Positions 17,771 to 47,631 of a stretch of DNA of 64,000 nucleotides are shown here, in pieces. Below the pieces are notes generated by a model. The model did no database searches, was not told the DNA's origin, and was given only the letters and a program-made list of their open reading frames with translations. The position numbers were made by a program, and so were the translations under genes. Origin of the DNA: an uncultured Clostridia bacterium (GTDB taxonomy: Bacteria; Bacillota; Clostridia; Oscillospirales; Acutalibacteraceae); NCBI GenBank assembly GCA_946182865.1, contig CAMHAV010000002.1, positions 744-64,743 on the forward strand, in the 5' to 3' direction. How positions within the stretch are numbered: position 1 is the stretch's first letter; each line of letters begins with the position of its first letter.

Positions 17771-17805
17771 CATTTCACACTTCACATTTCACACTTCGCA
17801 TTTTT
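17771..17805. repeat. heptamer array, 5 units (CATTTCA CACTTCA CATTTCA CACTTCG CATTTTT)
   Basis: Read directly. This is the reverse complement of the AGTGTGA-type unit at 37919. It abuts the recD2 stop codon (17804-17806) and fills most of the spacer to comFC. Confidence 0.8.
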
Positions 17806-20038
17806 AATTTACGTCTCTGCGCAAAAACACGTCGAGCGCCGAGTAGCGCAGGGTTTTCTTCTGATTTCTTGCCATCTGAATGGCGACCTGTTTATGACCT
17901 ACCATAATCAAGATGGATTTGGCGCGGGTGACGGCGGTATATAACAGATTCCGGTAACAAAGCTGCGGCGCCATCGGATACATCGGAATGATGACAGCGG
18001 GAAATTCGCTCCCTTGGCTCTTGTGTACCGTAATGGCATAGGCATGCTCCAGTTCGTCCGCGTTGTCGATGGAATACAGCGCCACGCGGTCATCAAACCG
18101 CACTTTCAGCAGGCCGCGCAGCTTGTCGATTTCCTCCAGCAGCCCCACGTCGCCGTTGTAGATGCCTGTTCCCTCGGTGCCGTCGTCCTTCGTCCATTCG
18201 ACATTGTAATTGTTCTTGACCTGCATGATTTTGTCCCCCTGCCGGAAGGTCACGCCGCCCACCTTGATTTCGGGGCGTTTCTGGTGCTGGGGATTGAACC
18301 GCTGCTGCAATACTTTGTTAAGCTCCACTGTGCCAAGTTCCCCCTTGCGTCCGGGACAAAGCACCTGGATATCTTTCAGCGGGTTGAAGTTGTACGCGTC
18401 GGGCAGCCGCTTAAAGCACAGGTCGGAAATCATCTGTGAGATTTTTTCTTTTTCCCGCAGCGGCAGAAAGAAGAAGTCGTTGTCGAGCTGATCAAGCCGG
18501 GGCAGTTCGCCGCTGATAATGCGGTGGGCATTCATGATAATCGCGCTTTTCTGCGCCTGACGGAATACCTCTGTCAACGCCACCACCGGCACGCGCCCCG
18601 AAGCGATCAGATCGCCCAGCACATTGCCGGGGCCGACGCTGGGGAGCTGGTCGCTGTCCCCGACCAGCACCAGACGACAGCCGAATTTCACCGCCCGCAG
18701 CAGGCTTTGAAACAGCAGCACGTCGGTCATGGAAAGCTCGTCCACAATCAGCGCGTCGCAGTCGAGGGGATTTTTGTCGTTGCGGGCAAAGGACTGCGTG
18801 TCGTTCTCGCCCCATTCTACTTCCAACAGACGGTGAATGGTTTTGGCTTCATGCCCCGTGATTTCGGTGATGCGCTTAGCGGCACGTCCTGTGGGGGCCG
18901 CAATCGCAACCTTGTGTCCGTAGATTTCAAGAAGCTCGATAATGGCGTTGAGGGTGGTGGTTTTGCCGGTACCCGGGCCGCCCGTCAGCACCAGCAAGCC
19001 CTTGTTCATCGCCGCGTCGATCGCTTCGGTTTGCAGCGCGTCATAGGTGATGCCGGTCATGCTTTCGATCAGATCCATCTGACGCGCGTAGTTTTTGATG
19101 GGTTCGGCGGGACACATCGCCATGGTGGCAATGCGCCCGGCGCAATACAGTTCCGCTTCATAGAGATAAGGCAGGAAAATGAAGGTCTTGCCGTCCCACT
19201 CGTCCTGCATGAAATCGGTTTCATCAATGGCGGTTTCGAGCTGCTCCGCCACCGCGTCTCGCGGGAGGTCGAGCAAGCCCGCCGCCACGTCGATAAGTTT
19301 TTCCTTGGGCAGACAGGTGTGACCGTTGCCTAAATTGTGCTGAAGCACATAGTACAGTCCCGCTATAATACGTCGCCCGCTGTCGGGGGCTTTTTCCAGC
19401 TCCATAGCCATCGCGTCCACCCGTTCAAAGCCGATATTCAGCCCCTCGGCGCACAGCACATAGGGATCGTCCTGAATGAGTTCAATGCAGCCCACACCGA
19501 ATCGCTTCCAGACGGAAAGCGCCTCATTGGGATTGATATGGTACTGTCCGAGAAAGGCCATTGCTTCCCGCAGTCCGAAATGAGAGCGGAAGTCCTCGGA
19601 AATCTGCTCCGCCTTGTTTTGGGAAATGCCACGGATCTCCGCAAGCCGGAGGGGGTGTTTTTCGATGATTTCAAGCGTGCGGTCACCGAAGGCCTCCACG
19701 ATTTTGGTGGCGGTGGAGGGGCCGATACCCTTGACCGCGCCGGAGGAAAGGTAGCGCAGAATCGCCGTCGCGCCGGAGGGCATGCGGCTTTCGCAGCTCT
19801 CCGCCGCGAACTGCCGCCCAAACTTCGGATGGGTCGCCCAGCGGCCGTACATTACTATTTCCTCCCCCGCGTTGACGGGAGGCAGCACGCCGACGGCAAT
19901 CACCAACTCGTCGTCCACGTCGAGTTCTACGACCGTAAAGCCGCTCTGCTCGTTGCGGAAGGTGATTTCCTCCACCGTGCCGCTGATTTTTTCCAGCGCT
20001 TTTTCCCGCGCGTTTTGTGTGTCGGACAAATCACTCAC
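17804..20038 (-). CDS. recD2: RecD2-type SF1B ATP-dependent DNA helicase
   Basis: Walker A GGPGTGKTT, LIVDELSM and the C-terminal TVHKSQGSEF. Length is about 740 aa. Confidence 0.9.
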   Translation of the reverse strand: MSDLSDTQNAREKALEKISGTVEEITFRNEQSGFTVVELDVDDELVIAVGVLPPVNAGEEIVMYGRWATHPKFGRQFAAESCESRMPSGATAILRYLSSGAVKGIGPSTATKIVEAFGDRTLEIIEKHPLRLAEIRGISQNKAEQISEDFRSHFGLREAMAFLGQYHINPNEALSVWKRFGVGCIELIQDDPYVLCAEGLNIGFERVDAMAMELEKAPDSGRRIIAGLYYVLQHNLGNGHTCLPKEKLIDVAAGLLDLPRDAVAEQLETAIDETDFMQDEWDGKTFIFLPYLYEAELYCAGRIATMAMCPAEPIKNYARQMDLIESMTGITYDALQTEAIDAAMNKGLLVLTGGPGTGKTTTLNAIIELLEIYGHKVAIAAPTGRAAKRITEITGHEAKTIHRLLEVEWGENDTQSFARNDKNPLDCDALIVDELSMTDVLLFQSLLRAVKFGCRLVLVGDSDQLPSVGPGNVLGDLIASGRVPVVALTEVFRQAQKSAIIMNAHRIISGELPRLDQLDNDFFFLPLREKEKISQMISDLCFKRLPDAYNFNPLKDIQVLCPGRKGELGTVELNKVLQQRFNPQHQKRPEIKVGGVTFRQGDKIMQVKNNYNVEWTKDDGTEGTGIYNGDVGLLEEIDKLRGLLKVRFDDRVALYSIDNADELEHAYAITVHKSQGSEFPAVIIPMYPMAPQLCYRNLLYTAVTRAKSILIMVGHKQVAIQMARNQKKTLRYSALDVFLRRDVN

Positions 20039-20302
20039 CTCCCGCCCGATTTTGATTTGCCTTGAAAAACTTGGTAAAACAGGGAAATTATTTCGTACCT
20101 TATATTATAAACCATTGTCATCCAAATGCCAATAGGATTTTGGGAGATTTTTTATCATACAAAAACGTTCCCGACACATGGATGCAAAAGGTAACACAAC
20201 ATATTTCAAAAATAATACAATTGGTTACAGATTAACAAATTGCTTGACTTTGCCATAGACAAAAGCCTATACTATGCTCAATGGTGAATTTGTGAGTTTT
20301 AT

Positions 20303-21388
20303 ATGAAAGGATTGTATATCATGGCAAAGAAAAAGACAATATTAAAAATCGCGGCGGCTTCGGTCGCGGGGCTGCTGCTAACGGGAAGTCTGGCGGTATC
20401 GAGTCTGACGCTTTACAATCAGTTGCAGGTCACGCACGCCTTTCAGAAGCTGATGGGCAACGTGGAAGACCCCGCGCAGGAGGACAATGTGCTGATCGGG
20501 GACAATTACGCCGTCAAATCCACCACACAGATTTCCGACGCGTACCGCTCCGGCGACGTCTCCCAGCTCAGCAGCCGTGACAAAGAAACCCTTGATATGG
20601 CCAAGGAAGTCCTCGATAAGATCATCAAGGACGACATGACGGATTATCAGAAAGAGATCGCCGTCTATCAATACCTGACCGCCGATCTCACCGGCACCAA
20701 GGGCATTCTCACGGTCATCAACAACGGCAACGACGAAAATTACGAGCCGCACGACGTTTTGAAAAACCACAGCGCGGTCTGTGTGGGATATGCGACCACC
20801 TTCCGTCTCTTTATGCAAATGCTCGGCATTGACTGCATGGTGGTTCACAGCAGCGACCTCACACACACATGGAATCTTGTCAAGCTCGACGACGGCTGCT
20901 GGTATCATACCGACTGCTACATGGATTCCACTACCGCCAACTTTATGAACTTCAACATGGATGACAGAACCGCACTTCAGACACATGGCTGGAACCGCGA
21001 TTTCTTCCCCGCCGCAAACGGCAAAAAATACAACTACATGCTCTCGGTCTGCGAGGAACTCGGTAACCTCTATGATGTTCCCAAGTGGGTCATGGAATCC
21101 ATCAAAGCCAAGAAAACTGCGGTGAGCTGCACTTTCAAAACCCCCATCGGAGAGAAAGACGTCAATCTCGCCAAGTATATGGCCGAGGCGGTGCAGGAAC
21201 AGCTCGAAAGCACCGGCCGCCTCTTTGCGCAGTACCAGTGGATCCTCAACGATGAAGGACAATATGTTCTCTGCTACTACTTCCAATACGATAGCAACGA
21301 GATTGATCTCGATGAAAAGACGCGCAACAAGGTGGATGACAAAATTTACTCTGTCTTTGACAAGTACGATTTTTACAGCATGGATTAA
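20303..21388 (+). CDS. membrane-anchored transglutaminase-like cysteine protease-fold protein
   Basis: N-terminal TM helix and a Cys-His-Asp core (AVCVGYATTF ... HTWNLVKLDDGCWYHTD). An alternative start is at 20321. Confidence 0.75.
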   Translation: MKGLYIMAKKKTILKIAAASVAGLLLTGSLAVSSLTLYNQLQVTHAFQKLMGNVEDPAQEDNVLIGDNYAVKSTTQISDAYRSGDVSQLSSRDKETLDMAKEVLDKIIKDDMTDYQKEIAVYQYLTADLTGTKGILTVINNGNDENYEPHDVLKNHSAVCVGYATTFRLFMQMLGIDCMVVHSSDLTHTWNLVKLDDGCWYHTDCYMDSTTANFMNFNMDDRTALQTHGWNRDFFPAANGKKYNYMLSVCEELGNLYDVPKWVMESIKAKKTAVSCTFKTPIGEKDVNLAKYMAEAVQEQLESTGRLFAQYQWILNDEGQYVLCYYFQYDSNEIDLDEKTRNKVDDKIYSVFDKYDFYSMD

Positions 21389-21414
21389 TCCGTGAGGAAA
21401 AGGAACGTGAGAAC

Positions 21415-21933
21415 ATGAAAAAAAGGGCATTGGTGCATTCGGTCAAAGGCGCGGCGGCATTTGCCGTGACGGTGCTTCTGCTGTGTCTGCCGCTGGCTTC
21501 GTGCGGCGAAAAGCCCGCCGATATCGACATGTACGATCTATGCAAGACCATGAGCGGCGCGTCCGACAAATGGCAGGAGATGAAATACGCCAGCAGCGAG
21601 GACAATGCCCCCGCCGAACTGCTTGAAAACATTTCGGATATGGATTACGCCAAGGTCAACGCTTTCTTTATTTACTACGCCGCCGAAGGGGCAGGCAATG
21701 CCGACGAAATCGCCGTCATTCAGGTCAAAAACAAAGCCGATCTGACCGAGGCGGCCGACTCGCTGACGGCACATCTCAATAAGCGCAAATCGCTGTATGC
21801 CACCTATGACCGCAGCCAGCTCGCCAAGCTCGAAAAAGGCAGAGTCATCACCAAAAACGGCATAGCCGCGCTCATCGTTGCGGACGACGCCGATCAGATC
21901 GAAGATATCTTTTTCCAAGCCGTTAGCCGTTGA
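21415..21933 (+). CDS. DUF4358-like lipoprotein
   Basis: Lipobox LPLASCG. The pattern ...EIAVIQVKNKADL...AALIVADDADQIEDIF matches my memory of DUF4358. Confidence 0.6.
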   Translation: MKKRALVHSVKGAAAFAVTVLLLCLPLASCGEKPADIDMYDLCKTMSGASDKWQEMKYASSEDNAPAELLENISDMDYAKVNAFFIYYAAEGAGNADEIAVIQVKNKADLTEAADSLTAHLNKRKSLYATYDRSQLAKLEKGRVITKNGIAALIVADDADQIEDIFFQAVSR

Positions 21934-22009
21934 CCGTTAGCTGTTGGCCGTTAGCGGTTAGCCGTTAGCCATTGGCGGTTAGCCGTTGGCCGTTAGCCGT
22001 TGGCGTTTG
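21919..22009. repeat. heptamer array, 13 units of GCCGTTR
   Basis: Chunked by hand: GCCGTTA GCCGTTG ACCGTTA GCTGTTG GCCGTTA GCGGTTA GCCGTTA GCCATTG GCGGTTA GCCGTTG GCCGTTA GCCGTTG GCGTTTG. TT is invariant at positions 5-6. The first two units contain the last codons and the stop of the DUF4358 gene. Confidence 0.9.
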
Positions 22010-22136
22010 TGGCGAAGTACTTCCGCGTTTGCCTTGCCATTATCTGATTTTTGGGATGTCTTGCGCTTTCTTCGGCACTAACGCGACTGTCACCTAAACG
22101 GTAGTATAGTAAAACCAAATGCACTTTTGTCTACAT

Positions 22137-22164
22137 GCTAACGGCTAAGCGCTAACAGCTAACC
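22137..22164. repeat. heptamer array, 4 units in inverse orientation (GCTAACG GCTAAGC GCTAACA GCTAACC)
   Basis: Reverse-complement flavour of the 21919 array, 127 bp downstream of it and about 24 nt before the MBOAT start. Confidence 0.85.
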
Positions 22165-22187
22165 GTTATAATAGGGAGGGAAAAACG

Positions 22188-23597
22188 TTGGTTTTCAGCA
22201 GTGCGGTGTTTCTTCTGGCGTTTTTGCCGATCGTGCTGTCGGTGTATTATATGATCCCTGTCCGGCTGAAAAATCCCATGCTCCTGCTGGCCAGCCTGAT
22301 TTTCTACGCATGGGGAGAACCGGTATATGTTCTCATCATGCTCTTCTCCACCGTATTCGATTACGGCAACGGTCTGATGCTGGAACATCTCGACCGCACA
22401 GGGCAGCCTCATCGGCGCAAGTGGGTGCTGGCGCTGTCAGTCGCGGTCAATCTGGGACTGCTCGGCTTCTTCAAGTACACTGACTTTCTGCTCGGCAGTC
22501 TGAATGCCTTGTTTGGCACGGGATTTGCGCCGCTGCGCCTGCCTTTGCCCATCGGCATTTCCTTTTATACCTTTCAGACCCTTTCTTACACCATCGACGT
22601 GTACCGCCGCGAAATACCCGCGCAGCGCCGCCTGGTGGACTTCGGCATGTATGTGTGCCTGTTTCCCCAGTTGATCGCGGGGCCCATTGTCAGATACCGC
22701 GATATTGCGTCGCAGATTGGCGTTAGGGAGATCGGCGCGGACAAGGCCTGCGCAGGCATCTTCCGCTTTGTGCAGGGACTTGCCAAAAAGGTGCTGCTGG
22801 CCAATTCTTTCGGCGCGCTCTGGGATGAAATATCGGCGCAGGACGGAGAACGGGCAGCGCTGACTGCCTTTCTGGGCGCGGCGGCGTATATGCTGCAAAT
22901 CTACTTCGATTTTTCGGGCTACTCCGATATGGCCATCGGCACCGGGAAAATGCTGGGCTTCGACTTCCCCGAAAACTTCAACTACCCTTATGAATCGCGC
23001 AGCGTCACCGAATTCTGGCGGCGCTGGCATATCTCGCTCGGCACATGGTTCCGCGAATACCTCTACATACCGCTGGGCGGCAGCCGCCGGGGTTTTGCGC
23101 GGCAGATACGCAATCTGCTGATCGTCTGGCTGCTCACGGGACTGTGGCACGGCGCGGGCTGGCAGTTTGCCGTGTGGGGACTGTATTTCTTCGCGCTGCT
23201 GGTGCTGGAAAAGCGCTTTCTGCTGCGCCGGCTGGAGCGGCTTCCCGCCGCGGTTTCCCATATTTACACGCTGCTGGCGGTGCTTCTGTCGTGGGTGATC
23301 TTTGCCTGTGACGATCTGGGAAGCGCCTGGCGTTATCTCTTATCCCTGTTTGGGGCAAACGGACTGGCCAATGCCGCCTCTTGGTATTACTTTCGCGCCC
23401 ATGCGCTGCCCCTGCTGATCGGCGCTTTTCTGTCGGTGAGTGCCGTTAAAACGATTTGGCGGCGTTTCCTTTACAGACGCCCCGTCGAAAAACATGCGTT
23501 CGCTGTCAAAACATGCGTTGCTGCGGCGCTGTATGTGGTATCGCTGCTCGCGGTGATCAACGGCGGCTACAATCCTTTTTTGTATTTCAGATTTTAA
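22188..23597 (+). CDS. MBOAT-family membrane O-acyltransferase (AlgI/DltB-like)
   Basis: Polytopic, with the conserved-His motif FWRRWHISLGTWFREYLYIPLGG. TTG start with GGGAGGG upstream. Confidence 0.9.
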   Translation: MVFSSAVFLLAFLPIVLSVYYMIPVRLKNPMLLLASLIFYAWGEPVYVLIMLFSTVFDYGNGLMLEHLDRTGQPHRRKWVLALSVAVNLGLLGFFKYTDFLLGSLNALFGTGFAPLRLPLPIGISFYTFQTLSYTIDVYRREIPAQRRLVDFGMYVCLFPQLIAGPIVRYRDIASQIGVREIGADKACAGIFRFVQGLAKKVLLANSFGALWDEISAQDGERAALTAFLGAAAYMLQIYFDFSGYSDMAIGTGKMLGFDFPENFNYPYESRSVTEFWRRWHISLGTWFREYLYIPLGGSRRGFARQIRNLLIVWLLTGLWHGAGWQFAVWGLYFFALLVLEKRFLLRRLERLPAAVSHIYTLLAVLLSWVIFACDDLGSAWRYLLSLFGANGLANAASWYYFRAHALPLLIGAFLSVSAVKTIWRRFLYRRPVEKHAFAVKTCVAAALYVVSLLAVINGGYNPFLYFRF

Positions 23598-23612
23598 TGG
23601 GGGGAGCGCTTT

Positions 23613-24692
23613 ATGAAACGTCTCACCGTTTCCAAAACCGTTATCGCGGGCTTTCTCCTGCTGCCGCTGCTGCTGTTGACGGTCATTCTGTTCCGGCCGG
23701 ATCAGACCGTCTCGGTCATTGAAAACCGTACTCTCACGACCAAAGATAATCTTGACACGAACATTCTTGGCGGTGACTTTCAGGACAGTCTGGAGCAATA
23801 TCTCTGCGATCAGTTTCCCCTGCGCGGACGCATCAAGCAGGCAGAGACAGAAGGCAAACTGCTGCTTGGCATGCGTGAATCGGGCGGCGCTTATATCGGA
23901 AAAGAGTACCGTCTCTTTCAAAAGCTTCCCCAAGCGGAGATCGACAAGGCGGCGTGCGAAAAATATGCCCGCAGGGTCAACCGCCTGGCCGAAAAGACAG
24001 AACTGCCCCTGTATGTGATGTATGTTCCCTCGTCCGGCATTGCTTTGAACGACCTGCTGCCGGAAGGCGCACCCATGTACGATTACGAAGATTTGTATGC
24101 GGCACTTTCCGCACAGCTTCCGTCTGCCGGAATGATTGAACTGCTGCCCGTGCTGTCGGGGCAAGCAGCCTGTTACTATGCCACCGACCACCACTGGACG
24201 GCGCTCGGCGCGTATCGCGCCTATCAGGCGTGGTGTGAGGCACACGGCACGGAGCCGTCTGTCAGCGAAAGCGACCTGGTGCCTGTGACCCATTCCTTTC
24301 GAGGCACGCTCTATTCCCGCGTGCCGTCGGGCAAAATCCCCTGCGACACGATCAGCGCCCCGCCGCTCGATACGGCGCTGGTTGTCGAAGCAGACGGCAG
24401 GGAGATCGGTTTATACGACCCGGCCGCGTTGAAAACAAAGGATAAATACAACTATTTTCAAGGCGGCAATCACGGCACAGTGATTGTTACCAATCCTCAT
24501 GCCGCATCGGACAAGACGCTGTTGCTGCTCAAGGATTCTTTTGCCAACAGCCTGCTTCCTTATCTTGCAGAAGATTATGCAAAAATTGCCATGCTGGACG
24601 AACGCTATGCCTTTGTAGAACCGTCCGAACTGGCGGAAATGATCGGAGCGGATGAAATCGCCGTTGTCAGGGAATTGATTTCCGTGCCGTAA
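23613..24692 (+). CDS. DHHW-family protein (AlgX/AlgJ-like SGNH partner of MBOAT)
   Basis: N-terminal TM helix and the name-giving motif YYATDHHWT. Confidence 0.8.
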   Translation: MKRLTVSKTVIAGFLLLPLLLLTVILFRPDQTVSVIENRTLTTKDNLDTNILGGDFQDSLEQYLCDQFPLRGRIKQAETEGKLLLGMRESGGAYIGKEYRLFQKLPQAEIDKAACEKYARRVNRLAEKTELPLYVMYVPSSGIALNDLLPEGAPMYDYEDLYAALSAQLPSAGMIELLPVLSGQAACYYATDHHWTALGAYRAYQAWCEAHGTEPSVSESDLVPVTHSFRGTLYSRVPSGKIPCDTISAPPLDTALVVEADGREIGLYDPAALKTKDKYNYFQGGNHGTVIVTNPHAASDKTLLLLKDSFANSLLPYLAEDYAKIAMLDERYAFVEPSELAEMIGADEIAVVRELISVP

Positions 24693-24791
24693 GATGATTT
24701 TGTGGTTATTCCCGTAGATATAATAATGTCAGTTGTAATTCGCATGAGCGGATATCTTTGAGAAAATGCACCGGAAGGAGGTGGCAAGAGC

Positions 24792-25238: not shown

Positions 25239-25246
25239 ATCAAAAA

Positions 25247-25301
25247 GCCCCTATATATTTGACAATGAAAAAGTCATTGTCAAATATATAGGGGGCATTT
25301 T
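25247..25301 (+). terminator. perfect 22-bp hairpin plus T-tract
   Basis: GCCCCTATATATTTGACAATGA (25247-25268) pairs perfectly with TCATTGTCAAATATATAGGGGC (25274-25295), with a 5-nt loop, followed by ATTTTTA. Confidence 0.75.
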
Positions 25302-37918: not shown

Positions 37919-38051
37919 AGTGTGAAGTGTGAAGTGTGAAGTGTGAAGTGGGAAGTGGGAAGTGGGAAGTGGGAAGTGTGAAATGTATCACTGACCACTA
38001 ATCACTCACCACTGACAGCTAACAGCTAACGGCTAATCACTGACTACTGAA
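37919..38051. repeat. heptamer array, 19 in-phase units of three flavours
   Basis: AGTGTGA x4, AGTGGGA x4, AGTGTGA, AATGTAT, CACTGAC, CACTAAT, CACTCAC, CACTGAC, AGCTAAC x2, GGCTAAT, CACTGAC, TACTGAA (indexed by hand). It spans the last proB codons through to about 10 nt before the proA RBS. Confidence 0.9.
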
Positions 38052-38939: not shown

Positions 38940-39154
38940 TCGCTAAATATGCCTAAATTTGCCGCCTGTTGCCATGAAATCCACAACATATTGAACGTGA
39001 TCCGTTTTCCCTTATCCCTTATATTTAATACAGTCTATTATATCATAGGAATCGCGAAAAAGTTCATATATTACAGAACTGTTATCTTTTTTTAACATTC
39101 TGTGAAGAGAGGCTAAATTTTTACAGAACCGTCAATTCTTCGTTACATAGGCAG

Positions 39155-39183: not shown

Positions 39184-39243
39184 TGAAAAAATATTGACAA
39201 TCTCAATATTTCCCTTATTTTTGCAACTAAGAAGGTATCGGCA

Positions 39244-40464
39244 ATGAAAACATTCCATAAATCCCACAAGCTCGACAATGTGTGCTACGATATCCGCGGT
39301 CCGGTCATGGACGAGGCCAACCGCATGATTGCCCGCGGAGAAACCATTCTCAAGCTCAACATCGGCAACCCGGCGCCTTTCGGCTTCCGTGCGCCGGATG
39401 AGGTGATCGACGCGATGCAGTCCAACCTCACCGCCACCGAGGGCTATTCCGACTCCAAGGGGCTGCTGTCCGCACGGCAGGCGATTGCGGACTACTGCGT
39501 CAATGTCAAGCATATCGAGGGGGTCACGCCCGACGATATCTACACGGGCAACGGCGCGAGCGAACTGATCACCATGTCGATGCAGGGATTGCTCGACAAC
39601 GGCGACGAAGTGCTTGTCCCCGCGCCGGACTATCCGCTCTGGACGGCTTCGGTCACGCTGGCAGGCGGCACGGCGGTGCATTACATCTGCGACGAGTGCG
39701 CCGACTGGTACCCCGATCTCGACGATATCCGCTCCAAAATCACTCCCCGCACCAAGGGCATTGTCATCATCAACCCCAACAATCCGACAGGCGCACTCTA
39801 TCCCCGCGAATTGCTGGAGGAGATTGCGCAGATCGCGCGGGAAAACGGGCTGATTATCTATTCCGATGAAATTTACGACCGCCTGGTGATGGACGGTCTG
39901 GAACATACTTCTATTTCCTCCCTCGCGCCGGATGTCTTTTCCATTACATTCAACGGACTTTCCAAATCCCATCTCATCGCGGGCTACCGCTGCGGATGGA
40001 TGACCCTCTGCGGCGAAAAATCGCACGTCAAGGGCTACATCGAGGGACTGAACCTGCTGTCCTCCATGCGCCTTTGCTCCAACGTACCCGCGCAGTCGCT
40101 CGTTCCCACCGCCTTGAAAAACGCCTACACCACCAAGGAACTTCTCGTTCCCGGCGGCAGAATTTACGAACAGCGGGAATTCATCTACAACGCCATCAAC
40201 GACATTCCCGGTATGAGCGCGGTGAAGCCCAAAGCGGCGTTTTACATCTTCCCCAAGATGGATATGCGGAAATTCAACATCACCGACGATGAGAAATTCG
40301 TGCTGGATTTCCTGAAGGAAAAGAAAATTCTGCTCACGCACGGCGGCGGCTTCCACTGGGAAACGCCCGATCACTTCCGCATTGTGTATCTGCCTCAGCT
40401 CGATCAGTTGCAGCAGGCGGCCGAAGGACTCCGGGACTTTCTTGCGACTTACAGACAGGCCTGA
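39244..40464 (+). CDS. PLP-dependent aminotransferase, class I (AlaA-like)
   Basis: NIGNP...F motif near the N-terminus, NPNNPTGA, and the PLP-lysine context FNGLSKSHLIAGYRCGW. Confidence 0.85.
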   Translation: MKTFHKSHKLDNVCYDIRGPVMDEANRMIARGETILKLNIGNPAPFGFRAPDEVIDAMQSNLTATEGYSDSKGLLSARQAIADYCVNVKHIEGVTPDDIYTGNGASELITMSMQGLLDNGDEVLVPAPDYPLWTASVTLAGGTAVHYICDECADWYPDLDDIRSKITPRTKGIVIINPNNPTGALYPRELLEEIAQIARENGLIIYSDEIYDRLVMDGLEHTSISSLAPDVFSITFNGLSKSHLIAGYRCGWMTLCGEKSHVKGYIEGLNLLSSMRLCSNVPAQSLVPTALKNAYTTKELLVPGGRIYEQREFIYNAINDIPGMSAVKPKAAFYIFPKMDMRKFNITDDEKFVLDFLKEKKILLTHGGGFHWETPDHFRIVYLPQLDQLQQAAEGLRDFLATYRQA

Positions 40465-40507
40465 GGGACATCTTTTTCTTTCTGACGAAACAAACCTACC
40501 TGTATAT

Positions 40508-40556
40508 AAAGCACGGCAGCGTGCGGACAGGAAGTCCGCACGCTGCCGTGCTTTTT
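40508..40556. terminator. perfect 18-bp GC-rich hairpin, bidirectional
   Basis: GCACGGCAGCGTGCGGAC (40511-40528) pairs with GTCCGCACGCTGCCGTGC (40534-40551), with loop AGGAA. It is flanked by AAA before and TTTTT after, between convergent genes. Confidence 0.8.
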
Positions 40557-40626
40557 CTGTTGATCACGCAGACCTTCCACATCCGGAGTCAGCATGAACC
40601 CTATTTTCTGGGAGTCAAAACTTGTT

Positions 40627-41214
40627 TCAGGTATTGGCCTTTCGGATAATGGTTTTGGCACATTCATCCACGCTGGTAATGTTTGTGTTCAGAATAATGT
40701 CATAATACACATCTTCGTCATGGATAGAAAAGATTTTTTTCTCTTGAGGATGCTGTCTCTGAACATCAAGCGGCTTGGCGGTGTTGCTTGTGCTCAGGTA
40801 GTATTTGGAAAGATTGATCGGCGCCGAATAGACATAGGCGATACACACCGGTTCAAGTTCACTCAGGATCGCCGCGGCAAACCGACCCATAAAGATGCCC
40901 CCCTTGTTTTTGCGGTGGAGGATCCGTATGGCTTCCGCCAGCGCGTTATAGGAATGATGAACCGAGTGTTGCTCAAAACGGTTGGGATTGGAAAACAAAG
41001 AAAATATCAGACTTCCGAAGTTTTTTTCCTCAAACGGTTTCAGATAAGCCACATCCGCGCCCAGTTTTTCCGCTTCGTCAAGAATGGTACGGTTGTCAAT
41101 AAACGTCATTCCTGTTTCCTGTGAAATTTTCTGCGCTATCTCGTATCCGCTTTTTACAAATGATTCTATCACAATCGTTCTCAAATCTATAACCCCTTTC
41201 TTCCAGTATTCCAT
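40627..41214 (-). CDS. cytidylate-kinase-like family protein with degenerate P-loop
   Basis: The layout resembles the PF13189-type family (...YDIILNTNITSVDECAKTII). The usual GSGG P-loop position reads FVKSGY. The start is uncertain: ATG at 41214 avoids overlap with the helicase gene, and the ORF track gives 41253. Confidence 0.5.
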   Translation of the reverse strand: MEYWKKGVIDLRTIVIESFVKSGYEIAQKISQETGMTFIDNRTILDEAEKLGADVAYLKPFEEKNFGSLIFSLFSNPNRFEQHSVHHSYNALAEAIRILHRKNKGGIFMGRFAAAILSELEPVCIAYVYSAPINLSKYYLSTSNTAKPLDVQRQHPQEKKIFSIHDEDVYYDIILNTNITSVDECAKTIIRKANT

Positions 41215-41231
41215 ATGACCTTTGAGAAAGA

Positions 41232-42914
41232 TTATTCGTCGACCGATTCGCACCTGACGCGGCGTCCCATGATACGGGTCTTGTTGAGGGCATTCATGAC
41301 GGCGGGGGCAGCTTCCGCAGGGACAGTGAAGGCGGAGGATTTTTCCGCGATTTCGATTCGTCCGATCATGCGTCCGGGCAGGCCGGTTTCACCCGCCACA
41401 GCGCCGACAATATGCTTGGGGGCAATGCCCGCGACGCTGCCTATGTTGATGGAGAGCCTGACAACATTGGTTTCACTGCGGTCATGTCTGCCCCGTCTGC
41501 CGCCGTCCCGTCCGCCGCTCCGGCGGTTGTCGTACCTGTCGCCGCGTTCGGAACGCTTTTCCTGACGGGCGAACGCAGCGTCATCGGCTTCGGAAGGCAT
41601 GGCGGTCTTGCCGCCCGCGGTCATCTCGTATTTCAGCAGCGCGGCGGCAATCGCGGCGGGAGAGATGCCGCTTTCCTCCATCTGCTCCACCATCGCGGCG
41701 TATGGTTCGAGTCCGCCCTGTTCCACCGCGGCGCGTACCTGATCGGCAAAGCGTCTGCGGCGGCTCTCCGTCACGTCCGCCCCGGTGGGAATATACCCCT
41801 TTTTGATGTCGGCGCGGGTATAATGCATAATGCCCCGCAGCTCGCCCATTTCGCGGGAGCCTGTCACAAAGGTGAACGCCAGTCCCGACTGTCCGGCACG
41901 TCCGGTGCGCCCGATGCGGTGGACGTAGTATTCCACATCCTGCGGGATGTCGTAATTGAAAACCGCGCCCACGCCGCTCACGTCAATGCCGCGTGCCGCC
42001 ACATCGGTGGCAATGAGGATATCGACGCTGCCGCTGCGGAACGTGTTCATCACATGGTCGCGCGCCGCCTGCTTCATATCGCCGTGCAGTCCCTCCGCGA
42101 CATAACCGCGCTGCTGCATGGCGCTGGTCAGCTCGTCCACCTGCTTTTTGGTATTGCAGAAAATCATAGCGGGGCGGGGCCGGTACACATCCATCAGACG
42201 GCTGAGCGCCTCAATTTTGAGGCTGTGGGGAATCGTATAATAATACTGCTCGATCTTATCCACCGTCAGTTCTTTCTGCACCGCCTTGATAAATTCCGGC
42301 TCGCGCAGATACTGCTCGGTGATGGCGAGAATTTCGGGAGACATGGTGGCGGAAAACAGCACGGTCTGCCGCTCGTCCGGCACATCCTCAAAGATGGTTT
42401 CGATATCCTCGCGAAACCCCATGGAGAGCATTTCGTCCGCTTCGTCGAGAATGACGGTCTGTAGATCCTGTAACCGGAGGGTATGGCGGCGCATATGATC
42501 CATGACGCGTCCCGGTGTGCCGACCACGATCTGCGCGCCGGCACGCAGCAGCTTGATCTGACGCTCGATGTCCGCCCCGCCGTAAACCGCCACAGGACGT
42601 ATGCCGCGGACATACGCAGTCAGTTTGCGGATCTCCTCGCACGCCTGCATGGCCAGTTCACGCGTGGGGCAAAGCACCAGCACGCGGGGATTCTTACAGG
42701 CAGGCTGGCCCAGCAGCTTTTCAATGGCGGGAATCGCGAAAGCGGCGGTTTTTCCGGTGCCGGTCTGGGATTGTCCGATCAGATCCTTTCCTTCCATGAG
42801 CAGCGGAATGGTACGGGTCTGAATGGGCGTGGCCTCTTCATAGCCGATCTCCTCGATGGCCTGCATGATCGGCTGCGAAAGCCCCAGTTCGTTAAAGGGC
42901 AATGTCTGCGTCAT
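41232..42914 (-). CDS. DEAD-box ATP-dependent RNA helicase with C-terminal DbpA-like RNA-binding domain
   Basis: Q motif TPIQ, GQSQTGTGKT, DEAD (VILDEADEML), SAT and HRIGRTGRAG, with an RG-rich linker. Start trimmed to MTQTLPFNELG. Confidence 0.9.
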   Translation of the reverse strand: MTQTLPFNELGLSQPIMQAIEEIGYEEATPIQTRTIPLLMEGKDLIGQSQTGTGKTAAFAIPAIEKLLGQPACKNPRVLVLCPTRELAMQACEEIRKLTAYVRGIRPVAVYGGADIERQIKLLRAGAQIVVGTPGRVMDHMRRHTLRLQDLQTVILDEADEMLSMGFREDIETIFEDVPDERQTVLFSATMSPEILAITEQYLREPEFIKAVQKELTVDKIEQYYYTIPHSLKIEALSRLMDVYRPRPAMIFCNTKKQVDELTSAMQQRGYVAEGLHGDMKQAARDHVMNTFRSGSVDILIATDVAARGIDVSGVGAVFNYDIPQDVEYYVHRIGRTGRAGQSGLAFTFVTGSREMGELRGIMHYTRADIKKGYIPTGADVTESRRRRFADQVRAAVEQGGLEPYAAMVEQMEESGISPAAIAAALLKYEMTAGGKTAMPSEADDAAFARQEKRSERGDRYDNRRSGGRDGGRRGRHDRSETNVVRLSINIGSVAGIAPKHIVGAVAGETGLPGRMIGRIEIAEKSSAFTVPAEAAPAVMNALNKTRIMGRRVRCESVDE

Positions 42915-43240
42915 TCTCAAAACTTCCTCCCTATGTACGATTACGATGCGGTTTGAAATTTTACGTTTTAGAAAATTGCCCGCATCTGTTTGAAATGTCA
43001 AAAATCAGACTTGTGATTTGTACAAATTTATTATACTCCTCGTTGCGTGACATTGCAAACGGAAACTTGCGCAAATGCCAAAAAACCCGATTTTAGCCAA
43101 AATCTGCCCCATACCGCAAAGAAATTATGTCGGAAATTTTGCCGTTGGGAGGGGCTTGACAAAATCGCCCGTCTGATATAGCATATGGAATAGCAATATT
43201 TTTCCCGCATCACACATCTTATAAAAAGGAACTTGGAACC

Positions 43241-43801
43241 ATGAACTATCCGGCTCGTTTTTTCGGACATCTTCACACCGTCAACTCGCACCGCCGCAAA
43301 GTATTTGCGCATTGCTGCCGCGCGGGCATACCGTGGCAGGGACTGCTGCATGACCTGAGCAAATACAGCCCGACGGAATTCTGCAACGGCGTCAGATATT
43401 TTCAGGGCAACCGCAGCCCCAACGACGCGGAACGCGAGGATATCGGCTATTCCAGCGCGTGGATGCACCACAAGGGACGCAACCGCCATCATTTTGAATA
43501 TTGGGTCGATTATCACCCCGTCACCCGGACACAGGAACCGGTGAAAATGCCGGTGAAATATGTCGCGGAGATGTTCTGCGACCGCGTGGCGGCGGGCAAA
43601 ATCTACATGAAAAAGAACTACACCGATGACGCGCCGCTGCAATATTTTCTTAAGGCCAAAGGCCGCCGGATCATCCATCCCGAAACCTCCGACCTCCTTG
43701 AAAGCTGGCTCACTCTGCTGGCGGAGCAGGGGGAGGACGCGGCGTTTGCCGCCATCCGTGCGCAGCTCCGAAACGAAAAGCAGAACCGGAAACGGCGCTG
43801 A
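43241..43801 (+). CDS. conserved His-rich protein, DUF5662-like
   Basis: LLHDLSKYSPTEF...AWMHHKGRNRHHFEYW matches my recollection of the DUF5662 family. Function unknown. Confidence 0.5.
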   Translation: MNYPARFFGHLHTVNSHRRKVFAHCCRAGIPWQGLLHDLSKYSPTEFCNGVRYFQGNRSPNDAEREDIGYSSAWMHHKGRNRHHFEYWVDYHPVTRTQEPVKMPVKYVAEMFCDRVAAGKIYMKKNYTDDAPLQYFLKAKGRRIIHPETSDLLESWLTLLAEQGEDAAFAAIRAQLRNEKQNRKRR

Positions 43802-43806
43802 GTATC

Positions 43807-43834
43807 GCAGAATCATTACGCATTACGAATGAAT
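43807..43834. repeat. short heptamer tract (GCAGAAT CATTACG CATTACG AATGAAT)
   Basis: Two perfect CATTACG units at 43814-43827, starting 13 nt after a stop codon. This is the weakest member of the family. Confidence 0.5.
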
Positions 43835-43854
43835 CCAAATGAGGTGTTTTCCAT

Positions 43855-44979
43855 ATGAAAGAACAGACAGCATTTCGCCGCGAGGCGAAGATTATTGAAA
43901 CGAGCCTGATCGGTATCGGCGCCAACCTGCTGCTGGTGGGCTTCAAGACAACAGTGGGACTTCTGTCGCATTCCATCGCCATCGTGATGGACGCGGTGAA
44001 CAACCTGACCGATGCGCTTTCCTCTGTGATTACCGTCATCGGCACGCGGCTGGCCATCAAACCCGCCGACAAGGATCATCCTTACGGTCATGGGCGGTAT
44101 GAATATGTCAGCGCGGGACTGATCTCGATGATCGTCCTCTACGCGGGTTTCACCGCCCTGATCAAATCGGTCGGCAGCATATTGCATCCCGAAACGCCTG
44201 ATTATTCGGGGTTAACGCTGCTGATTGTGGCGGCGGCAGTTCTGGTGAAGATCGTGCTGGGGCTGTTCGTCAAGCGGCGGGGCAGTGAGCTGCATTCCGA
44301 CTCGCTGGTCAATTCGGGACAGGACGCACTGATGGACGCGGTGATTTCCACCTCTACTCTCGCGGCGGCGGCCGTTTACCTGCTGTTCCAAGTGAGTCTC
44401 GAGGCGTGGCTCGGCGCGGTCATTTCGGTAATCATCATCCGATCGGGCGTGGATATGTTACGTGATACCATCAGCAAGATTCTGGGGCAGCGGGTGGAAG
44501 GCGAGCTTTCACGCGAGGTCAAAGACACGGTCTGCGAGACAGAAGGCGTGGTGGGAGCGTATGACCTGATTCTCAACAGCTACGGACCCGACCGCTGGAT
44601 GGGTTCGGTACACATCGAAGTCCCTGACACCTGGACAGCCGACAAGATTGACACGGTCAGCCGCGAAATTACCGAGAGAGTCGCCCGTAAAAATCACGTC
44701 ATCATGACCGCCATCGGTATTTATTCCCAGAATTCCACCGACGATGCCGTCAAGGAAATGCGTACCCGCATCACCGAAACCGTTATGGCGGAGGAATATG
44801 TCCTGCAAATCCACGGTTTTTACTGTGATACGGAGACCAAAACGGTGCGTTTTGACGCGGTGATCGACTTCCTTGCGCCCGACAATAAGGAAGTATATCA
44901 GAACGTCTGCCAAAAAGTCACCGCGCTCTATCCCGATTACACTTTCCAGATTCTGCTCGATTCCGACTTTTCGGATTGA
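43855..44979 (+). CDS. cation diffusion facilitator family transporter
   Basis: TM2 motif HSIAIVMDAVNNLTD, six TM helices and a C-terminal cytoplasmic domain. Confidence 0.85.
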   Translation: MKEQTAFRREAKIIETSLIGIGANLLLVGFKTTVGLLSHSIAIVMDAVNNLTDALSSVITVIGTRLAIKPADKDHPYGHGRYEYVSAGLISMIVLYAGFTALIKSVGSILHPETPDYSGLTLLIVAAAVLVKIVLGLFVKRRGSELHSDSLVNSGQDALMDAVISTSTLAAAAVYLLFQVSLEAWLGAVISVIIIRSGVDMLRDTISKILGQRVEGELSREVKDTVCETEGVVGAYDLILNSYGPDRWMGSVHIEVPDTWTADKIDTVSREITERVARKNHVIMTAIGIYSQNSTDDAVKEMRTRITETVMAEEYVLQIHGFYCDTETKTVRFDAVIDFLAPDNKEVYQNVCQKVTALYPDYTFQILLDSDFSD

Positions 44980-45407
44980 ATGTTTTACACGGAAATCAAT
45001 TTAAAAAATCTGATGAACCATAAAAGCTATATCCCATCACATCACATATCGCTCACGAGCATTAGCAGACTGTCCTCACATGAAAATCAGAAATAAAAAC
45101 ACACCCCTCGACCCGATTACAAAAAAGTTACAAATACGCATGACGAAACCCATCGGGCCAATTGCGCGGACGGCGAATGCCGTGTACGCCCCCGACGCGT
45201 GCATCGAGGCAAAAGCCCGGTTGCGGGAGATAGTTTTCCCTTTTTAAAAAGCGAAAATGCGGCCATCGCTCCAGCCTCTATTGGCCTGCGCCCCGCGCCC
45301 GATGACGATGTAAGACGCACCCCCGCTAAAAAAACAACAGGGTTATTTTTTCAAACTTATAAAGCACAATCTAAAAATTGATTTCCCTGATTATTTTGTG
45401 AAACATA

Positions 45408-45436
45408 TTGCAAAGCGTGCGGCGGCATGCTATAAT
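45408..45436 (+). promoter_or_regulatory. sigma-A type promoter (TTGCAA, 17 nt, TGcTATAAT)
   Basis: Read directly, about 60 nt upstream of the ATG at 45499. Confidence 0.6.
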
Positions 45437-45498
45437 ATATCGGATTAGCGGCAGAGAAACAACATGGCCGCATCTTTTGAGAGAGGATATGAAACAAT

Positions 45499-46473
45499 AT
45501 GAACAGAAAAGGTAACATTGTCTCCTACAGACCTGACGTCAAGGTGCTTGACGCGACCATCCGTGACGGCGGACTGGTCAACAACTTCTATTTTGACGAT
45601 GATTTCGTGCGCGCCCTGTATCTCACCAACGTCAAGGCGGGCGTGGATTATATGGAATTCGGCTACAAAGCCTCCAAGGATATCTTTTCGCCCGACAAGT
45701 TCGGCAAGTGGAAGTTCTGCGACGAGGCGGACATCCGCGCCATTGTGGGCGAGAACAACACCGATCTGAAAATTTCCGTCATGGCTGACGTGGGAAGAAC
45801 CGACTTCCGCCGCGACATCATTCCCCGCTCCGAAAGCGTCATCGACATGGTGCGCGTCGCGACCTACATTAACACCATCCCCGCCGCTATTGAAATCGTG
45901 GAGTACTGCCACGAATTAGGCTACGAAACCACGGTCAATATCATGGCCATTTCCAACGCCAGCGACGTAGATATTGACGGCGCGCTGGAGCTTCTCTGCC
46001 AGAGCAGCGTGGACGGCATTTATCTGGTGGACAGCTACGGCTCCCTCTACCCCGAACAGGTGGCGCGTCTCTCGGAAAAGTACCTTTCCTACGCCGAACC
46101 GGCTGGCAAATACATCGGCATGCATGCCCACAACAACCAGCAGCTTGCTTTCGCCAACACCATCGAGGCCATGTCGCTCGGCGTAAGCTATCTCGACGCG
46201 ACGGTGTGCAGCATGGGCAGAGGCGCGGGCAACTGCGCCATGGAGCTGCTGCTCGGATTCTTCAAGAATCCCAAGTTCAACATCACGCCCGTCCTCAGCT
46301 TTATCGAAAAGCACATGCTCCCCCTGAAAGCCAGCGGTGTGGTGTGGGGCTATGACGTTCCCTATCTTCTCACGGGCCGTCTCAACCGCCACCCCTCCTC
46401 CGCCATCGAGTTTATCCGCGACGGCAAGACCGACTATGTGGATTTCTATCAGGAACTGCTGGACAGAGATTAA
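45499..46473 (+). CDS. HMGL-like aldolase catalytic (TIM-barrel) domain protein
   Basis: VLDATIRDGG near the N-terminus and HAHNNQQLAFANT metal-site motifs, typical of the pyruvate carboxyltransferase/HMGL-like fold. Confidence 0.65.
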   Translation: MNRKGNIVSYRPDVKVLDATIRDGGLVNNFYFDDDFVRALYLTNVKAGVDYMEFGYKASKDIFSPDKFGKWKFCDEADIRAIVGENNTDLKISVMADVGRTDFRRDIIPRSESVIDMVRVATYINTIPAAIEIVEYCHELGYETTVNIMAISNASDVDIDGALELLCQSSVDGIYLVDSYGSLYPEQVARLSEKYLSYAEPAGKYIGMHAHNNQQLAFANTIEAMSLGVSYLDATVCSMGRGAGNCAMELLLGFFKNPKFNITPVLSFIEKHMLPLKASGVVWGYDVPYLLTGRLNRHPSSAIEFIRDGKTDYVDFYQELLDRD

Positions 46474-47135
46474 TGGGCAACAAAATCAATTACAGTCTCG
46501 AATTTGAAAAAGAGATACGACGCTGCGAGGGGTGGCTGCCGACGCTGCTGCTGCATAGCTGCTGCGCGCCCTGCAGCAGCGCCGTGCTGGAAGTGGTAAC
46601 GCAGTATTTTGACGTGACGGTGTTTTATTTCAACCCCAACATCACGCCCGCCGAGGAATACGCCAAGCGTGTATGCGAGCTGAAACGGCTGCTGCGGGAG
46701 GCGGTCTATCCCCACCCGCCCAAGCTGCTGGAGGGGCGCTACGACAGCAGTGAATTCTTCGCCGTCGCCAAGGGGCTGGAATCCCTGCCGGAGGGCGGTG
46801 AACGCTGCGCGAAATGCTACCGTCTGCGTCTGGAAGAGACGGCGCGGGTCGCGGCGGCGGGACATTACGATTACTTCACCACCACGCTGAGCGTCAGCCC
46901 CTACAAAAACGCCGAAAAGCTCAACACCATCGGCGGTCAGCTGGCGCAGCAGTACGGCGTGAACTATCTGTATTCCGACTTTAAAAAGAAAAACGGCTAC
47001 AAACGCTCCATCGAACTGTCGGCGCAGTACGGGCTATACCGGCAGAATTACTGCGGCTGCGTGTATTCCGCGATGGAGGCGCAGCGCAAAGCAGCGGCGC
47101 GGTCATCAGACGGACAGGAGGCGGACAACGCGTGA
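46473..47135 (+). CDS. queH: epoxyqueuosine reductase QueH (DUF208)
   Basis: LLLHSCCAPCSS, CAKCYRLRLEETA and YCGCVYS cysteine motifs. Its start overlaps the previous stop (TAATG). Confidence 0.85.
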   Translation: MGNKINYSLEFEKEIRRCEGWLPTLLLHSCCAPCSSAVLEVVTQYFDVTVFYFNPNITPAEEYAKRVCELKRLLREAVYPHPPKLLEGRYDSSEFFAVAKGLESLPEGGERCAKCYRLRLEETARVAAAGHYDYFTTTLSVSPYKNAEKLNTIGGQLAQQYGVNYLYSDFKKKNGYKRSIELSAQYGLYRQNYCGCVYSAMEAQRKAAARSSDGQEADNA

Positions 47136-47476
47136 ACATTCAGATTTTCGGCAAGGCCAAGTGCTTTGACACCAAAAAGGCGGAGCGTTTCTTTAAAGAA
47201 CGCGGCGTGAAATACCAGTTCATTGACGTGGTGAAATACGGCATGAGCAAGGGCGAATACAACAGCGTCAAAAACGCGGTGGGCGGCATGCGGCAGCTCA
47301 TCGACGAGAAATCCAAGGCTTACGAGGACAACTACTGCGCCTATCTCGCGGACGAAGCGGCGGTGGAAGAAAAGCTGCTGGAACATCCCGCCATGTTTCG
47401 CACGCCTATCGTGCGCAACGGAAAAAAAGCCACCGTGGGCTACTGCCCCGACGTGTGGAAAACGTGGAATGATTAG
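47132..47476 (+). CDS. ArsC/Spx/MgsR-family thioredoxin-fold protein (YffB-like)
   Basis: MNIQIFGKAKCFDTKKAERFFKERGV is the family signature with a single N-terminal Cys. The GTG start overlaps the queH stop (GTGA). Confidence 0.75.
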   Translation: MNIQIFGKAKCFDTKKAERFFKERGVKYQFIDVVKYGMSKGEYNSVKNAVGGMRQLIDEKSKAYEDNYCAYLADEAAVEEKLLEHPAMFRTPIVRNGKKATVGYCPDVWKTWND

Positions 47477-47624
47477 CCGTTAGCCGTTAGCGATTAGCCG
47501 TTAGCCGTTAGCCGTTAGCGATTAGCCGTTAGCGATTAGCTGTTAGATGTTGGCGGTTGGCCGTTGGCGGTTAATGATTCGTGATTCGTAATTAGTGATT
47601 AATGGTTCGCCATTAATCACTAAT
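47471..47624. repeat. heptamer array, 22 in-phase units (CGTTAGC/GATTAGC type, degenerating 3')
   Basis: Chunked by hand. Units 1-11 all carry TAG at positions 4-6, and units 1-21 all carry TT at positions 3-4. The array begins inside the last codons of the ArsC-family gene (stop TAG at 47474-47476). Confidence 0.9.
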
Positions 47625-47631
47625 TTTGTTT
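47591..47631 (+). terminator. perfect 15-bp hairpin built from the last five repeat units, plus T-tract
   Basis: ATTAGTGATTAATGG (47591-47605), loop TTCG, CCATTAATCACTAAT (47610-47624), then TTTGTTTG. Confidence 0.75.

Follow-up and report, generated by a model that had tools for sequence, protein, structure and literature searches.

The stretch of DNA analysed here, referred to below as the window, comprises 64,000 nucleotides (64 kb) of contig CAMHAV010000002.1 from an uncultured rumen Clostridia bacterium, and it contains a dispersed family of arrays built head-to-tail from 7-nt units (heptamers), which stand at gene junctions on or beside the stop codon of the upstream gene. We found such period-7 arrays at 17771-17803, 21919-22004 (with an inverted partner at 22137-22164), 37919-38051 and 47471-47624. 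A scan of the whole 64 kb in 28-nt segments, at lags 2 to 15, counted the segments in which 23 or more of the 28 positions were self-matches: there were 73 at lag 7, 108 at lag 14 and 0 at every other lag. Tandem Repeats Finder (TRF) called period 7 or 14 at 17771-17803, 21918-22004, 22137-22163, 37919-37986, 37987-38036, 47471-47573 and 47571-47601, with up to 14.4 copies per array, and the two-unit word TTAGCNRTTAGC occurs 15 times in the window (0.02 expected). Two related unit types are common to four or five loci within these 64 kb, with TTAGCNR-type units at three loci and AGTG-type units at three. An earlier note on this DNA had described one dispersed family whose phase is held across changes of unit type for up to 22 units, and this description is borne out: unit types recur between loci, and a common phase is kept through 22 units in an in-register reading of 47471-47624 and through 19-20 units at 37919-38051. 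The arrays are therefore a real dispersed family of heptamer simple-sequence repeats (SSRs). Of the five loci that the note had listed, four are genuine arrays, all of them called by TRF; the fifth (43807-43834) has only two copies of CATTACG in this genome, is invariant between strains and was not called by TRF even at its lowest score threshold (30).

Array 1 (17771..17805, minus strand) reads (GTGTGAA/ATGTGAA)n on the transcribed strand, about 4.5 units with a TRF period of 7/14, and lies between the recD2 stop codon (17804-17806) and the ribosome-binding site and start (17748) of comFC. At locus 2 a forward arm of 12 units (21919..22004, plus strand; GCCGTTA, GCCGTTG, GCGGTTA and similar, called by TRF) is followed by a unique core of 132 nt (22005..22136, plus strand) and then by a reverse arm of about 4 units (22137..22164, minus strand; GCTAACG, GCTAAGC, GCTAACA, GCTAACC), which is the reverse complement of the forward arm and ends 24 nt ahead of the TTG start of the MBOAT gene (22188). 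Array 3, on the minus strand, has two halves. The downstream half (37919..37986) reads (CACTTCA)4(CACTTCC)4 plus one unit on the transcribed strand (9.7 copies with a 95% match by TRF) and ends 20 nt ahead of the proA start (37899), where it adjoins an AAAGGAG ribosome-binding site; the upstream half (37987..38051) consists, again on the transcribed strand, of CAGTAGT, CAGTGAT, TAGCCGT, TAGCTGT, TAGCTGT, CAGTGGT, GAGTGAT, TAGTGGT and CAGTGAT. Array 5 (47471..47589, plus strand, called by TRF) holds 17 units in one phase (GATTAGC, CGTTAGC ... GGTTGGC, GGTTAAT, GATTCGT) and passes in phase into a heptamer-built, terminator-like hairpin (47590..47633, plus strand), which a terminator scan and folding delimit as a 16-bp stem AATTAGTGATTAATGG-TTCG-CCATTAATCACTAATT followed by TTTTGTTTG. 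Locus 4 (43807..43834, plus strand) is a marginal member, with CATTACG twice and degenerate neighbours in the spacer that runs from the DUF5662 stop (43801) to the start of a CDF transporter gene (43855); given that a sister species has five regular units (CATTACG/AATTACG) at this junction, it is probably a small or decayed member of the family. The gene identities given in the note agree with Pfam for RecD2, a ComFC-like protein (double zinc ribbon plus phosphoribosyltransferase), DUF5662 and the CDF cation-efflux transporter, and with precomputed Pfam labels on strain contigs for DUF4358, MBOAT, ProB, ProA, the ArsC-like protein and IlvA.

Several known repeat types were considered and set aside. 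The units are 7 nt long and directly abutting, without spacers, which rejects an array of clustered regularly interspaced short palindromic repeats (CRISPR; repeats of about 24-48 nt and spacers of similar length). The basic unit is a direct repeat, with palindromy only where two arrays stand inverted, which rejects repetitive extragenic palindromic sequences and bacterial interspersed mosaic elements (REP/BIME). Rfam yielded no match at gathering thresholds anywhere in the window, and none that overlapped an array when 17600-47800 was searched at E<=1. The note had likewise found no place for the arrays among CRISPR, REP/BIME, coding repeats and RNA families, and here we concur. Its suggestion that a 12-nt piece at 9226-9237 is related to the arrays does not hold up, as array-derived 12-mers outside arrays are at chance level (2 against 2.5 expected). 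A TRF period-7 call at 39000-39022, in a divergent spacer, is not a member either, being only CCCTTAT twice and invariant, and it thus provides no counter-example. Elsewhere in the window, a perfect 20-bp GC-rich stem with T-runs on both sides and without heptamer units (40508-40554) lies in the convergent spacer between an aminotransferase gene (39244-40464, plus strand) and a gene at 40627-41253 (minus strand), and resembles a strong bidirectional terminator.

The position of the arrays relative to the upstream stop codon, from about 15 nt before it to 5 nt after it, is as the note had stated, and at three loci the stop codon itself is part of the array. Units of array 3 encode the last five codons of proB (SVVSD) and its TAG stop (38033-38035), the first units of the locus 2 forward arm encode the last four codons of the DUF4358 gene and its TGA stop (21931-21933), and the first unit of array 5 supplies the TAG of the ArsC-like gene (47474-47476). 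ProB ends in ..HFVPSRDSVSSVVSD in the window and in ..HFVAQK in an array-free relative, and is 273 amino acids long as against 264-267 in array-free relatives. Comparison of these termini indicates that arrays overwrote the last codons of ProB and of the DUF4358 protein and now supply their stop codons. Because the units carry TAG, TAA or TGA, and because 7 and 3 share no factor, an array presents a stop in every frame within 21 nt. Downstream the arrays halt about 20 nt before the next start codon and the ribosome-binding site is intact. We attribute this asymmetry to the arrays filling spacers that were once short and encroaching on dispensable C-terminal tails, which brings them into contact with the upstream stop codon, and to the constraint on the ribosome-binding site, which keeps them off the next start.

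Strains of the same species were found among rumen metagenome contigs through an exactly identical flanking protein; at the proBA locus identity is 99.3% over about 7 kb, and the other loci were matched by the identical flanking protein. Nearly every array difference among these strains, at four loci, is a gain or loss of 7, 14, 28, 49 or 56 nt, while the sequence flanking the arrays is essentially invariant. The proB-proA spacer has alleles of 133, 147 and 154 nt, with a gain of 28 nt (4 units) in the TTAGCYG block (37987..38051) in two strains, and losses of 7 and 14 nt in the CACTTCM block (37919..37986) among strains with identical ProA. Among strains with identical ComFC the recD2-comFC spacer measures 55, 62 or 69 nt, all of them whole-unit differences. 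The DUF4358-MBOAT spacer is 254 or 205 nt long, the shorter form having lost 49 nt (7 units) of the forward arm in one strain, a deletion that also changes a C-terminal residue of the upstream protein (..AVSR* to ..AVGR*); the reverse arm (22137..22164) does not vary among strains, and the core is identical in four strain contigs that cover it fully and in the covered part of a fifth. The ArsC-ilvA spacer measures 289 or 233 nt, the shorter allele lacking 56 nt (8 units), and there is also an allele of equal length with reordered units. Locus 4 is invariant in 5 strains. The note had regarded hypervariability between near-identical strains as a sign of plain microsatellite slippage, and this is largely what we observe, in the form of whole-unit changes.

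Some of the strain contigs show further peculiarities beside the arrays. Short-read metagenome contigs of the same species (L127, L130, L140, L141 and L311) often begin or end inside arrays; the arrays fragment assemblies and could truncate or distort gene calls at gene ends. On one contig with identical IlvA (L129:1-223), unrelated sequence replaces the end of the ArsC-like gene and array 5 upstream of the terminal hairpin, which carries two substitutions; the contig may be mis-joined at the repeat or reflect a rearrangement. Downstream of comFC, strains with identical ComFC also carry different genes (L135-L137 versus L138, window 15608-16948), encoding a large leucine-rich-repeat (LRR) protein in some strains and a serine hydroxymethyltransferase in others and in the window, a strain-level difference in gene content beside array 1.

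To place the arrays in time we used a graded series built from homologues of ProA, IlvA and MBOAT; the flanking proteins have close homologues, named 'Clostridia bacterium', in rumen metagenome assemblies. Where nucleotide identity is about 80% (86-89% for ProA), the proB-proA spacer of relatives measures 30 or 105 nt and holds no heptamer array. A relative with 76% MBOAT identity has a DUF4358-MBOAT spacer of 28 nt, without arrays and without the 132-nt core, and one with 91% IlvA identity shows no array in about 21 kb around ilvA. In a sister species (about 92% nucleotide identity; 96% for ProA) the three junctions open to comparison carry arrays as well, though shorter ones: its proB-proA spacer is 68 or 82 nt, likewise polymorphic by 14 nt, and keeps the two-part layout of a G-rich arm followed by a CACUUCN arm, and its ArsC-ilvA spacer is 198 nt without the terminal hairpin. 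The longest arrays of the series are those of the window's species. The series indicates that the arrays arose within this lineage, at fixed junctions where they appear to expand, contract and change unit type in place. As for the locus 2 core, blastn found no second copy of it in the window or in about 310 fetched loci, only orthologous copies. One contig (L311:1-2648, against window 22026-24607) is 99-100% identical for about 1100 nt and then about 80% identical within the MBOAT gene; the idea that the core is conserved beyond gene level on this contig was rejected, the contig being a recombinant (mosaic) strain or a chimeric assembly.

The note had further claimed that arrays occur only between genes on the same strand. 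This is true of 5/5 junctions in the window, against a background of 36/53 (68%) co-directional junctions (P=0.14; P=0.21 for the four solid arrays). We examined two public samples, in both of which the figures cover the matches listed and from neither of which per-taxon frequencies can be derived. The first consists of species-representative genomes scanned for four TTAGCNR units (at least 120 loci) and the second of metagenome contigs scanned for AGTGKGA units. Matches listed in the first sample come from Cyanobacteria, many of whose genomes carry TTAGCNR-type arrays, and from Oscillospiraceae, Ruminococcus, Lachnospiraceae, Acidobacteriota, Bacteroidota, Gemmatimonadota, Desulfobacterota, Chloroflexota, Planctomycetota, Actinomycetota, Gammaproteobacteria and an ANME-1 archaeon, and no close relative of the window was among them (best tblastx identity about 40%). 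Individual examples of TTAGCNR/GCTAANN arrays are those in an ANME-1 Methanophagales metagenome-assembled genome (L087) and, among cultured Gammaproteobacteria and Actinomycetota, in Methylotuvimicrobium buryatense 5G (L103) and Kitasatospora (L093), and at several loci in other genomes further heptamer arrays of different unit types lie nearby. Genes in both samples were called by log-odds of amino-acid composition, which reproduced the Pfam-labelled genes of the window except at two places (2 errors among about 54 genes); longest-ORF (open reading frame) calling and a G1/C2/G3 skew score were dropped because they were wrong at known genes. In the first sample the 136 array spacers divide into 101 co-directional, 21 convergent and 14 divergent, against 354, 68 and 70 among all junctions (chi-square P=0.47), and in the second the 74 array spacers divide into 49, 16 and 9 against 234, 50 and 47 (P=0.38), with no orientation preference in either. 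Nor does unit strand favour either direction of transcription (56 versus 58 in the first sample and 19 versus 13 in the second), and 13/149 classified arrays of the first sample are intragenic according to this crude caller. The same-strand rule is thus not supported: arrays follow the background orientation mix in both samples, so that placement is largely random in this respect, and they lie mostly between same-strand genes because most junctions are co-directional.

Two other regularities were looked at in these matches. Arrays within 15 nt of an upstream stop codon number 47 where 32.6 are expected in one sample and 22 where 14.3 are expected in the other, a modest excess, with no comparable excess near starts (39 versus 32.6, and 13 versus 14.3). 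The excess near stops fits encroachment on C-termini, and spurious ORFs ending in arrays may inflate part of it. Among the TAGC-type arrays listed from other genomes, 58/187 (31%) belong to pairs of adjacent, inverted arrays separated by less than 400 nt, and the order (xxTTAGC)n...(GCTAAxx)n is seen 23 times against 6 for the reverse, an asymmetry that is independent of the strand read. Locus 2 of the window has the commoner order. Gaps between the members of these listed pairs run from -2 to 398 nt with no common size.

Repeats of this kind have been described before. According to the summary in PMC4679880 of Mrazek 2007, long SSRs (LSSRs) are tandem units of 5-11 nt, mostly non-coding if the unit length is not a multiple of 3, and heptanucleotide repeats are their most abundant class in most prokaryotic genomes, with polymerase slippage as the proposed origin. 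The window arrays are like them in being tandem 7-nt units, longer than chance (as the lag-7 signal, the TRF copy numbers and the excess of TTAGCNRTTAGC show), in being intergenic except for the last 1-5 codons of the upstream gene, and in changing copy number by whole units between close strains at four loci. As summarised there, that survey is statistical, and this lineage, in-phase arrays of several flavours and overwritten C-termini such as those found here do not figure in it. A second precedent is the cyanobacterial short tandemly repeated repetitive (STRR) sequences, among them hairpin-forming 7-bp tandem repeats between the co-transcribed hupS and hupL genes and near the 3' end of preceding genes, for which transcript stabilisation, translational coupling and termination are proposed but unproven roles (PMC2670836). 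Window arrays and STRR are alike in their 7-bp head-to-tail units, in having few types spread over many intergenic loci and in being often hairpin-capable (PMC2670836; PMC4692102). STRR, first reported as heptanucleotide arrays in Calothrix PCC 7601, differ in their hosts, which are filamentous heterocystous cyanobacteria, whereas the host here is an uncultured rumen Clostridia bacterium. The units differ as well, being TTAGCNR and AGTGKGA in the window rather than the classical STRR units CCCCAGT, TTGGTCA and CAACAGT.

In Xanthomonas, GGGAATC arrays stand between the same genes in two species and vary extensively in length and sequence (PMC4692102), a behaviour matched by the two sister species here; the G-rich units of these arrays and of the Nostoc GGGGAYT arrays form G-quadruplexes, whereas the window units form hairpins instead and contain no G-tracts except in AGTGGGA. 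TAACTGA repeats have a patchy cross-phylum distribution, including marine Beggiatoaceae, cyanobacteria and Bacteroidetes (PMC4679880), and are alike in being intergenic heptamers with stop triplets that are scattered over distant phyla; they lie mostly a few nt upstream of start codons in 2-6 copies, whereas the window arrays abut stops and reach 17-22 units. Enterobacterial REP/BIME are also dispersed and extragenic, often in operons, and form hairpins in mRNA, but they are imperfect palindromes of about 35-40 nt without unit slippage, as opposed to tandem 7-nt units. We conclude that the window arrays have the defining features of heptanucleotide long SSRs and behave like STRR in another host and with other units. 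The repeat kind, already described in cyanobacteria, Xanthomonas and others, is not a new class, and the possibility raised in the note that the arrays match a described family, such as the heptanucleotide LSSRs or the STRR with their hupS-hupL arrays, is largely borne out.

Taken together, the whole-unit polymorphism, the lineage-specific origin, the overwritten C-termini and the lack of an orientation or strand rule across other genomes are best explained by slippage-driven arrays for which spacers and C-terminal tails are tolerated sites and whose structural effects are incidental, a reading to which we give a probability of roughly two in three. We infer both slippage as the mechanism and the neutrality or near-neutrality of the arrays. 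Slipped-strand mispairing, in replication or in repair, would lengthen, shorten and reorder arrays where they stand, by one or several 7-nt units each time. A 7-nt unit that is unreadable in frame and carries stop triplets would be tolerated only in non-coding spacers and dispensable C-terminal tails, and the former 28-30-nt spacers of array-free relatives would in this way have become mostly or largely array. Variant units may arise by point mutation and then be amplified, so that one phase holds blocks of different flavours. Hairpins could form from inverted blocks, and from units such as AGCCGUU and AGCGGUU that can pair through G.U; such hairpins may promote slippage, and may incidentally serve as terminators or mRNA structures.

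Several observations sit uneasily with this reading. Independent local slippage alone does not explain why the same units recur at several loci of the window and in more than 10 phyla, nor does slippage account for the bias of 23 to 6 in the order of the inverted pairs. The arrays persist at the same junctions across about 8% divergence, with the two-part proBA layout kept, and are longer-lived than a purely ephemeral microsatellite. Locus 2, with its unique core, has the look of a 254-nt insertion. The TTAGCCG-type arrays of the window are sense in 3/3 loci, and there the sense RNA forms a far better fold than the antisense, although the numbers are small. Finally, the orientation statistics that speak for slippage without a placement rule depend on the crude gene caller described above.

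An alternative that we consider unlikely is that the arrays are functional, tunable RNA elements. They would be transcribed as part of operons or of 3' ends, slippage would be the rheostat, and copy number and hairpins would govern how far the downstream gene is translated, how stable the mRNA is, or how it is processed by RNase III or terminated. Possible models are the roles proposed for the hupS-hupL STRR hairpins and the 5'-untranslated-region hairpin of Haemophilus influenzae hmw1A, where (ATCTTTC)n is transcribed, pairs with a G-rich arm and is cut by RNase III, and where its length sets expression (PMC12721329). The hmw1A/hmw2A repeats resemble the window arrays as heptamer SSRs upstream of a coding region with whole-unit slippage and a hairpin with a G-rich arm, and the proBA spacer, in which a G-rich arm precedes CACUUCN units in both sister species, looks similar to the hmw1A layout. 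Three arrays stop about 20 nt short of the following start codon, and as neither a promoter nor a terminator intervenes, they probably lie within polycistronic mRNA; this position in the leader of a downstream cistron would be compatible with a phase-variable contingency locus. At locus 2 the forward and reverse arms are predicted to pair (-112.6 kcal/mol, z=-4.65 against shuffles), and the locus 5 RNA, where array 5 leads into the 16-bp hairpin and its T-run, also folds far better than shuffles (z=-6.67), although such z-scores are inflated for repeats. Since AGCCGUU and AGCGGUU units are mutually complementary in RNA via G.U pairs, folding at loci 2 and 5 is much more favourable for the sense transcript than for the antisense (-46.5 versus -26.7 and -44.9 versus -19.2 kcal/mol).

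Other results argue against such a function. The proBA spacer folds no better than shuffles (z=-1.39), the AGTGTGA unit is sense to transcription at locus 1 and antisense at locus 3, the terminator hairpin is absent from the sister species, and the corresponding junctions are array-free in relatives at 76-89% protein identity. Whereas length control of adhesin expression through RNase III was shown for hmw, the genes that flank the window arrays are mostly housekeeping genes and not typical contingency genes. Across the roughly 90-170 arrays listed from other genomes there is neither a strand or orientation preference nor a sense-folding advantage: the sense fold is better in 45 and worse in 42 of 92 arrays, and selection at the RNA level was rejected on this absence of bias. 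A separate observation concerns the ilvA junction, where a near-consensus promoter-like site, TTGACA-17-GATAAT (47690-47718), lies downstream of the locus 5 hairpin; it is conserved in strains and in the sister species and recognisable in the relative with 91% IlvA identity. With this conserved site upstream of it, ilvA probably has its own promoter and is probably not co-transcribed with the ArsC-like gene.

A broader version of a functional role, that TTAGCNR/AGTGKGA arrays are a cross-phylum class of hairpin elements with a preferred (xxTTAGC)n-core-(GCTAAxx)n layout, inserted at gene ends in operons and tuning by copy number the termination, processing or translation of their neighbours, seems to us doubtful. 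Less probable again is that some loci, locus 2 especially, are footprints of a small non-autonomous mobile element in the manner of a miniature inverted-repeat transposable element (MITE), whose terminal inverted repeats would be the heptamer arrays themselves and whose transposition would have spread the shared units. Such an origin might account for the same units at dispersed loci, for the inverted arms around the 132-nt core, for the absence of the whole 254-nt block from the relative with a 28-nt spacer, and for the frequency (31%) and biased order of inverted pairs among the TAGC-type arrays listed elsewhere. It is set against a core present as a single copy in the window and the fetched loci, arms that are unequal (12 versus 4 units) and slippage-variable, loci 1, 3 and 5 without any core, the lack of a common gap size among the listed inverted pairs, and the fact that neither a target-site duplication nor a transposase was seen. 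Very improbable, finally, is that the arrays serve as multivalent sites to which a protein specific for a DNA or RNA sequence, perhaps a nucleoid protein or a regulator that reads repeats, would bind. This would explain the shared units and the recurrence of few unit types in strict 7-nt phase, and S1, Csp and CsrA, proposed for TAACTGA repeats (PMC4679880), offer a parallel. Against it, unit sequences vary freely along an array (TTAGCCG, TTGGCGG, GATTCGT, GATTAAT), nothing constrains copy number between strains, units lie in both orientations to the transcript, and the window offers no candidate protein with a link to the arrays.

With slippage-driven, tolerated arrays as the preferred explanation, our data extend a known but poorly understood repeat class, the heptanucleotide LSSRs and STRR, to the uncultured rumen Clostridia. 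They also provide a natural series for the birth and growth of such arrays, from a spacer of about 30 nt in distant relatives, through short arrays in the sister species, to unit-polymorphic arrays of 130-290 nt in the species itself, and they point to arrays as agents that can rewrite protein C-termini and provide stop codons. On the practical side, arrays of this kind break short-read metagenome assemblies and may distort gene calls at gene ends. The recurrence of units across phyla and the biased layout of inverted pairs would be notable if upheld in a full census; and should a cross-phylum hairpin class exist after all, something sequence-specific would be at work, for example hairpin-driven expansion through quasi-self-complementary units, and the question of why the unit is seven nucleotides long would become experimentally tractable.

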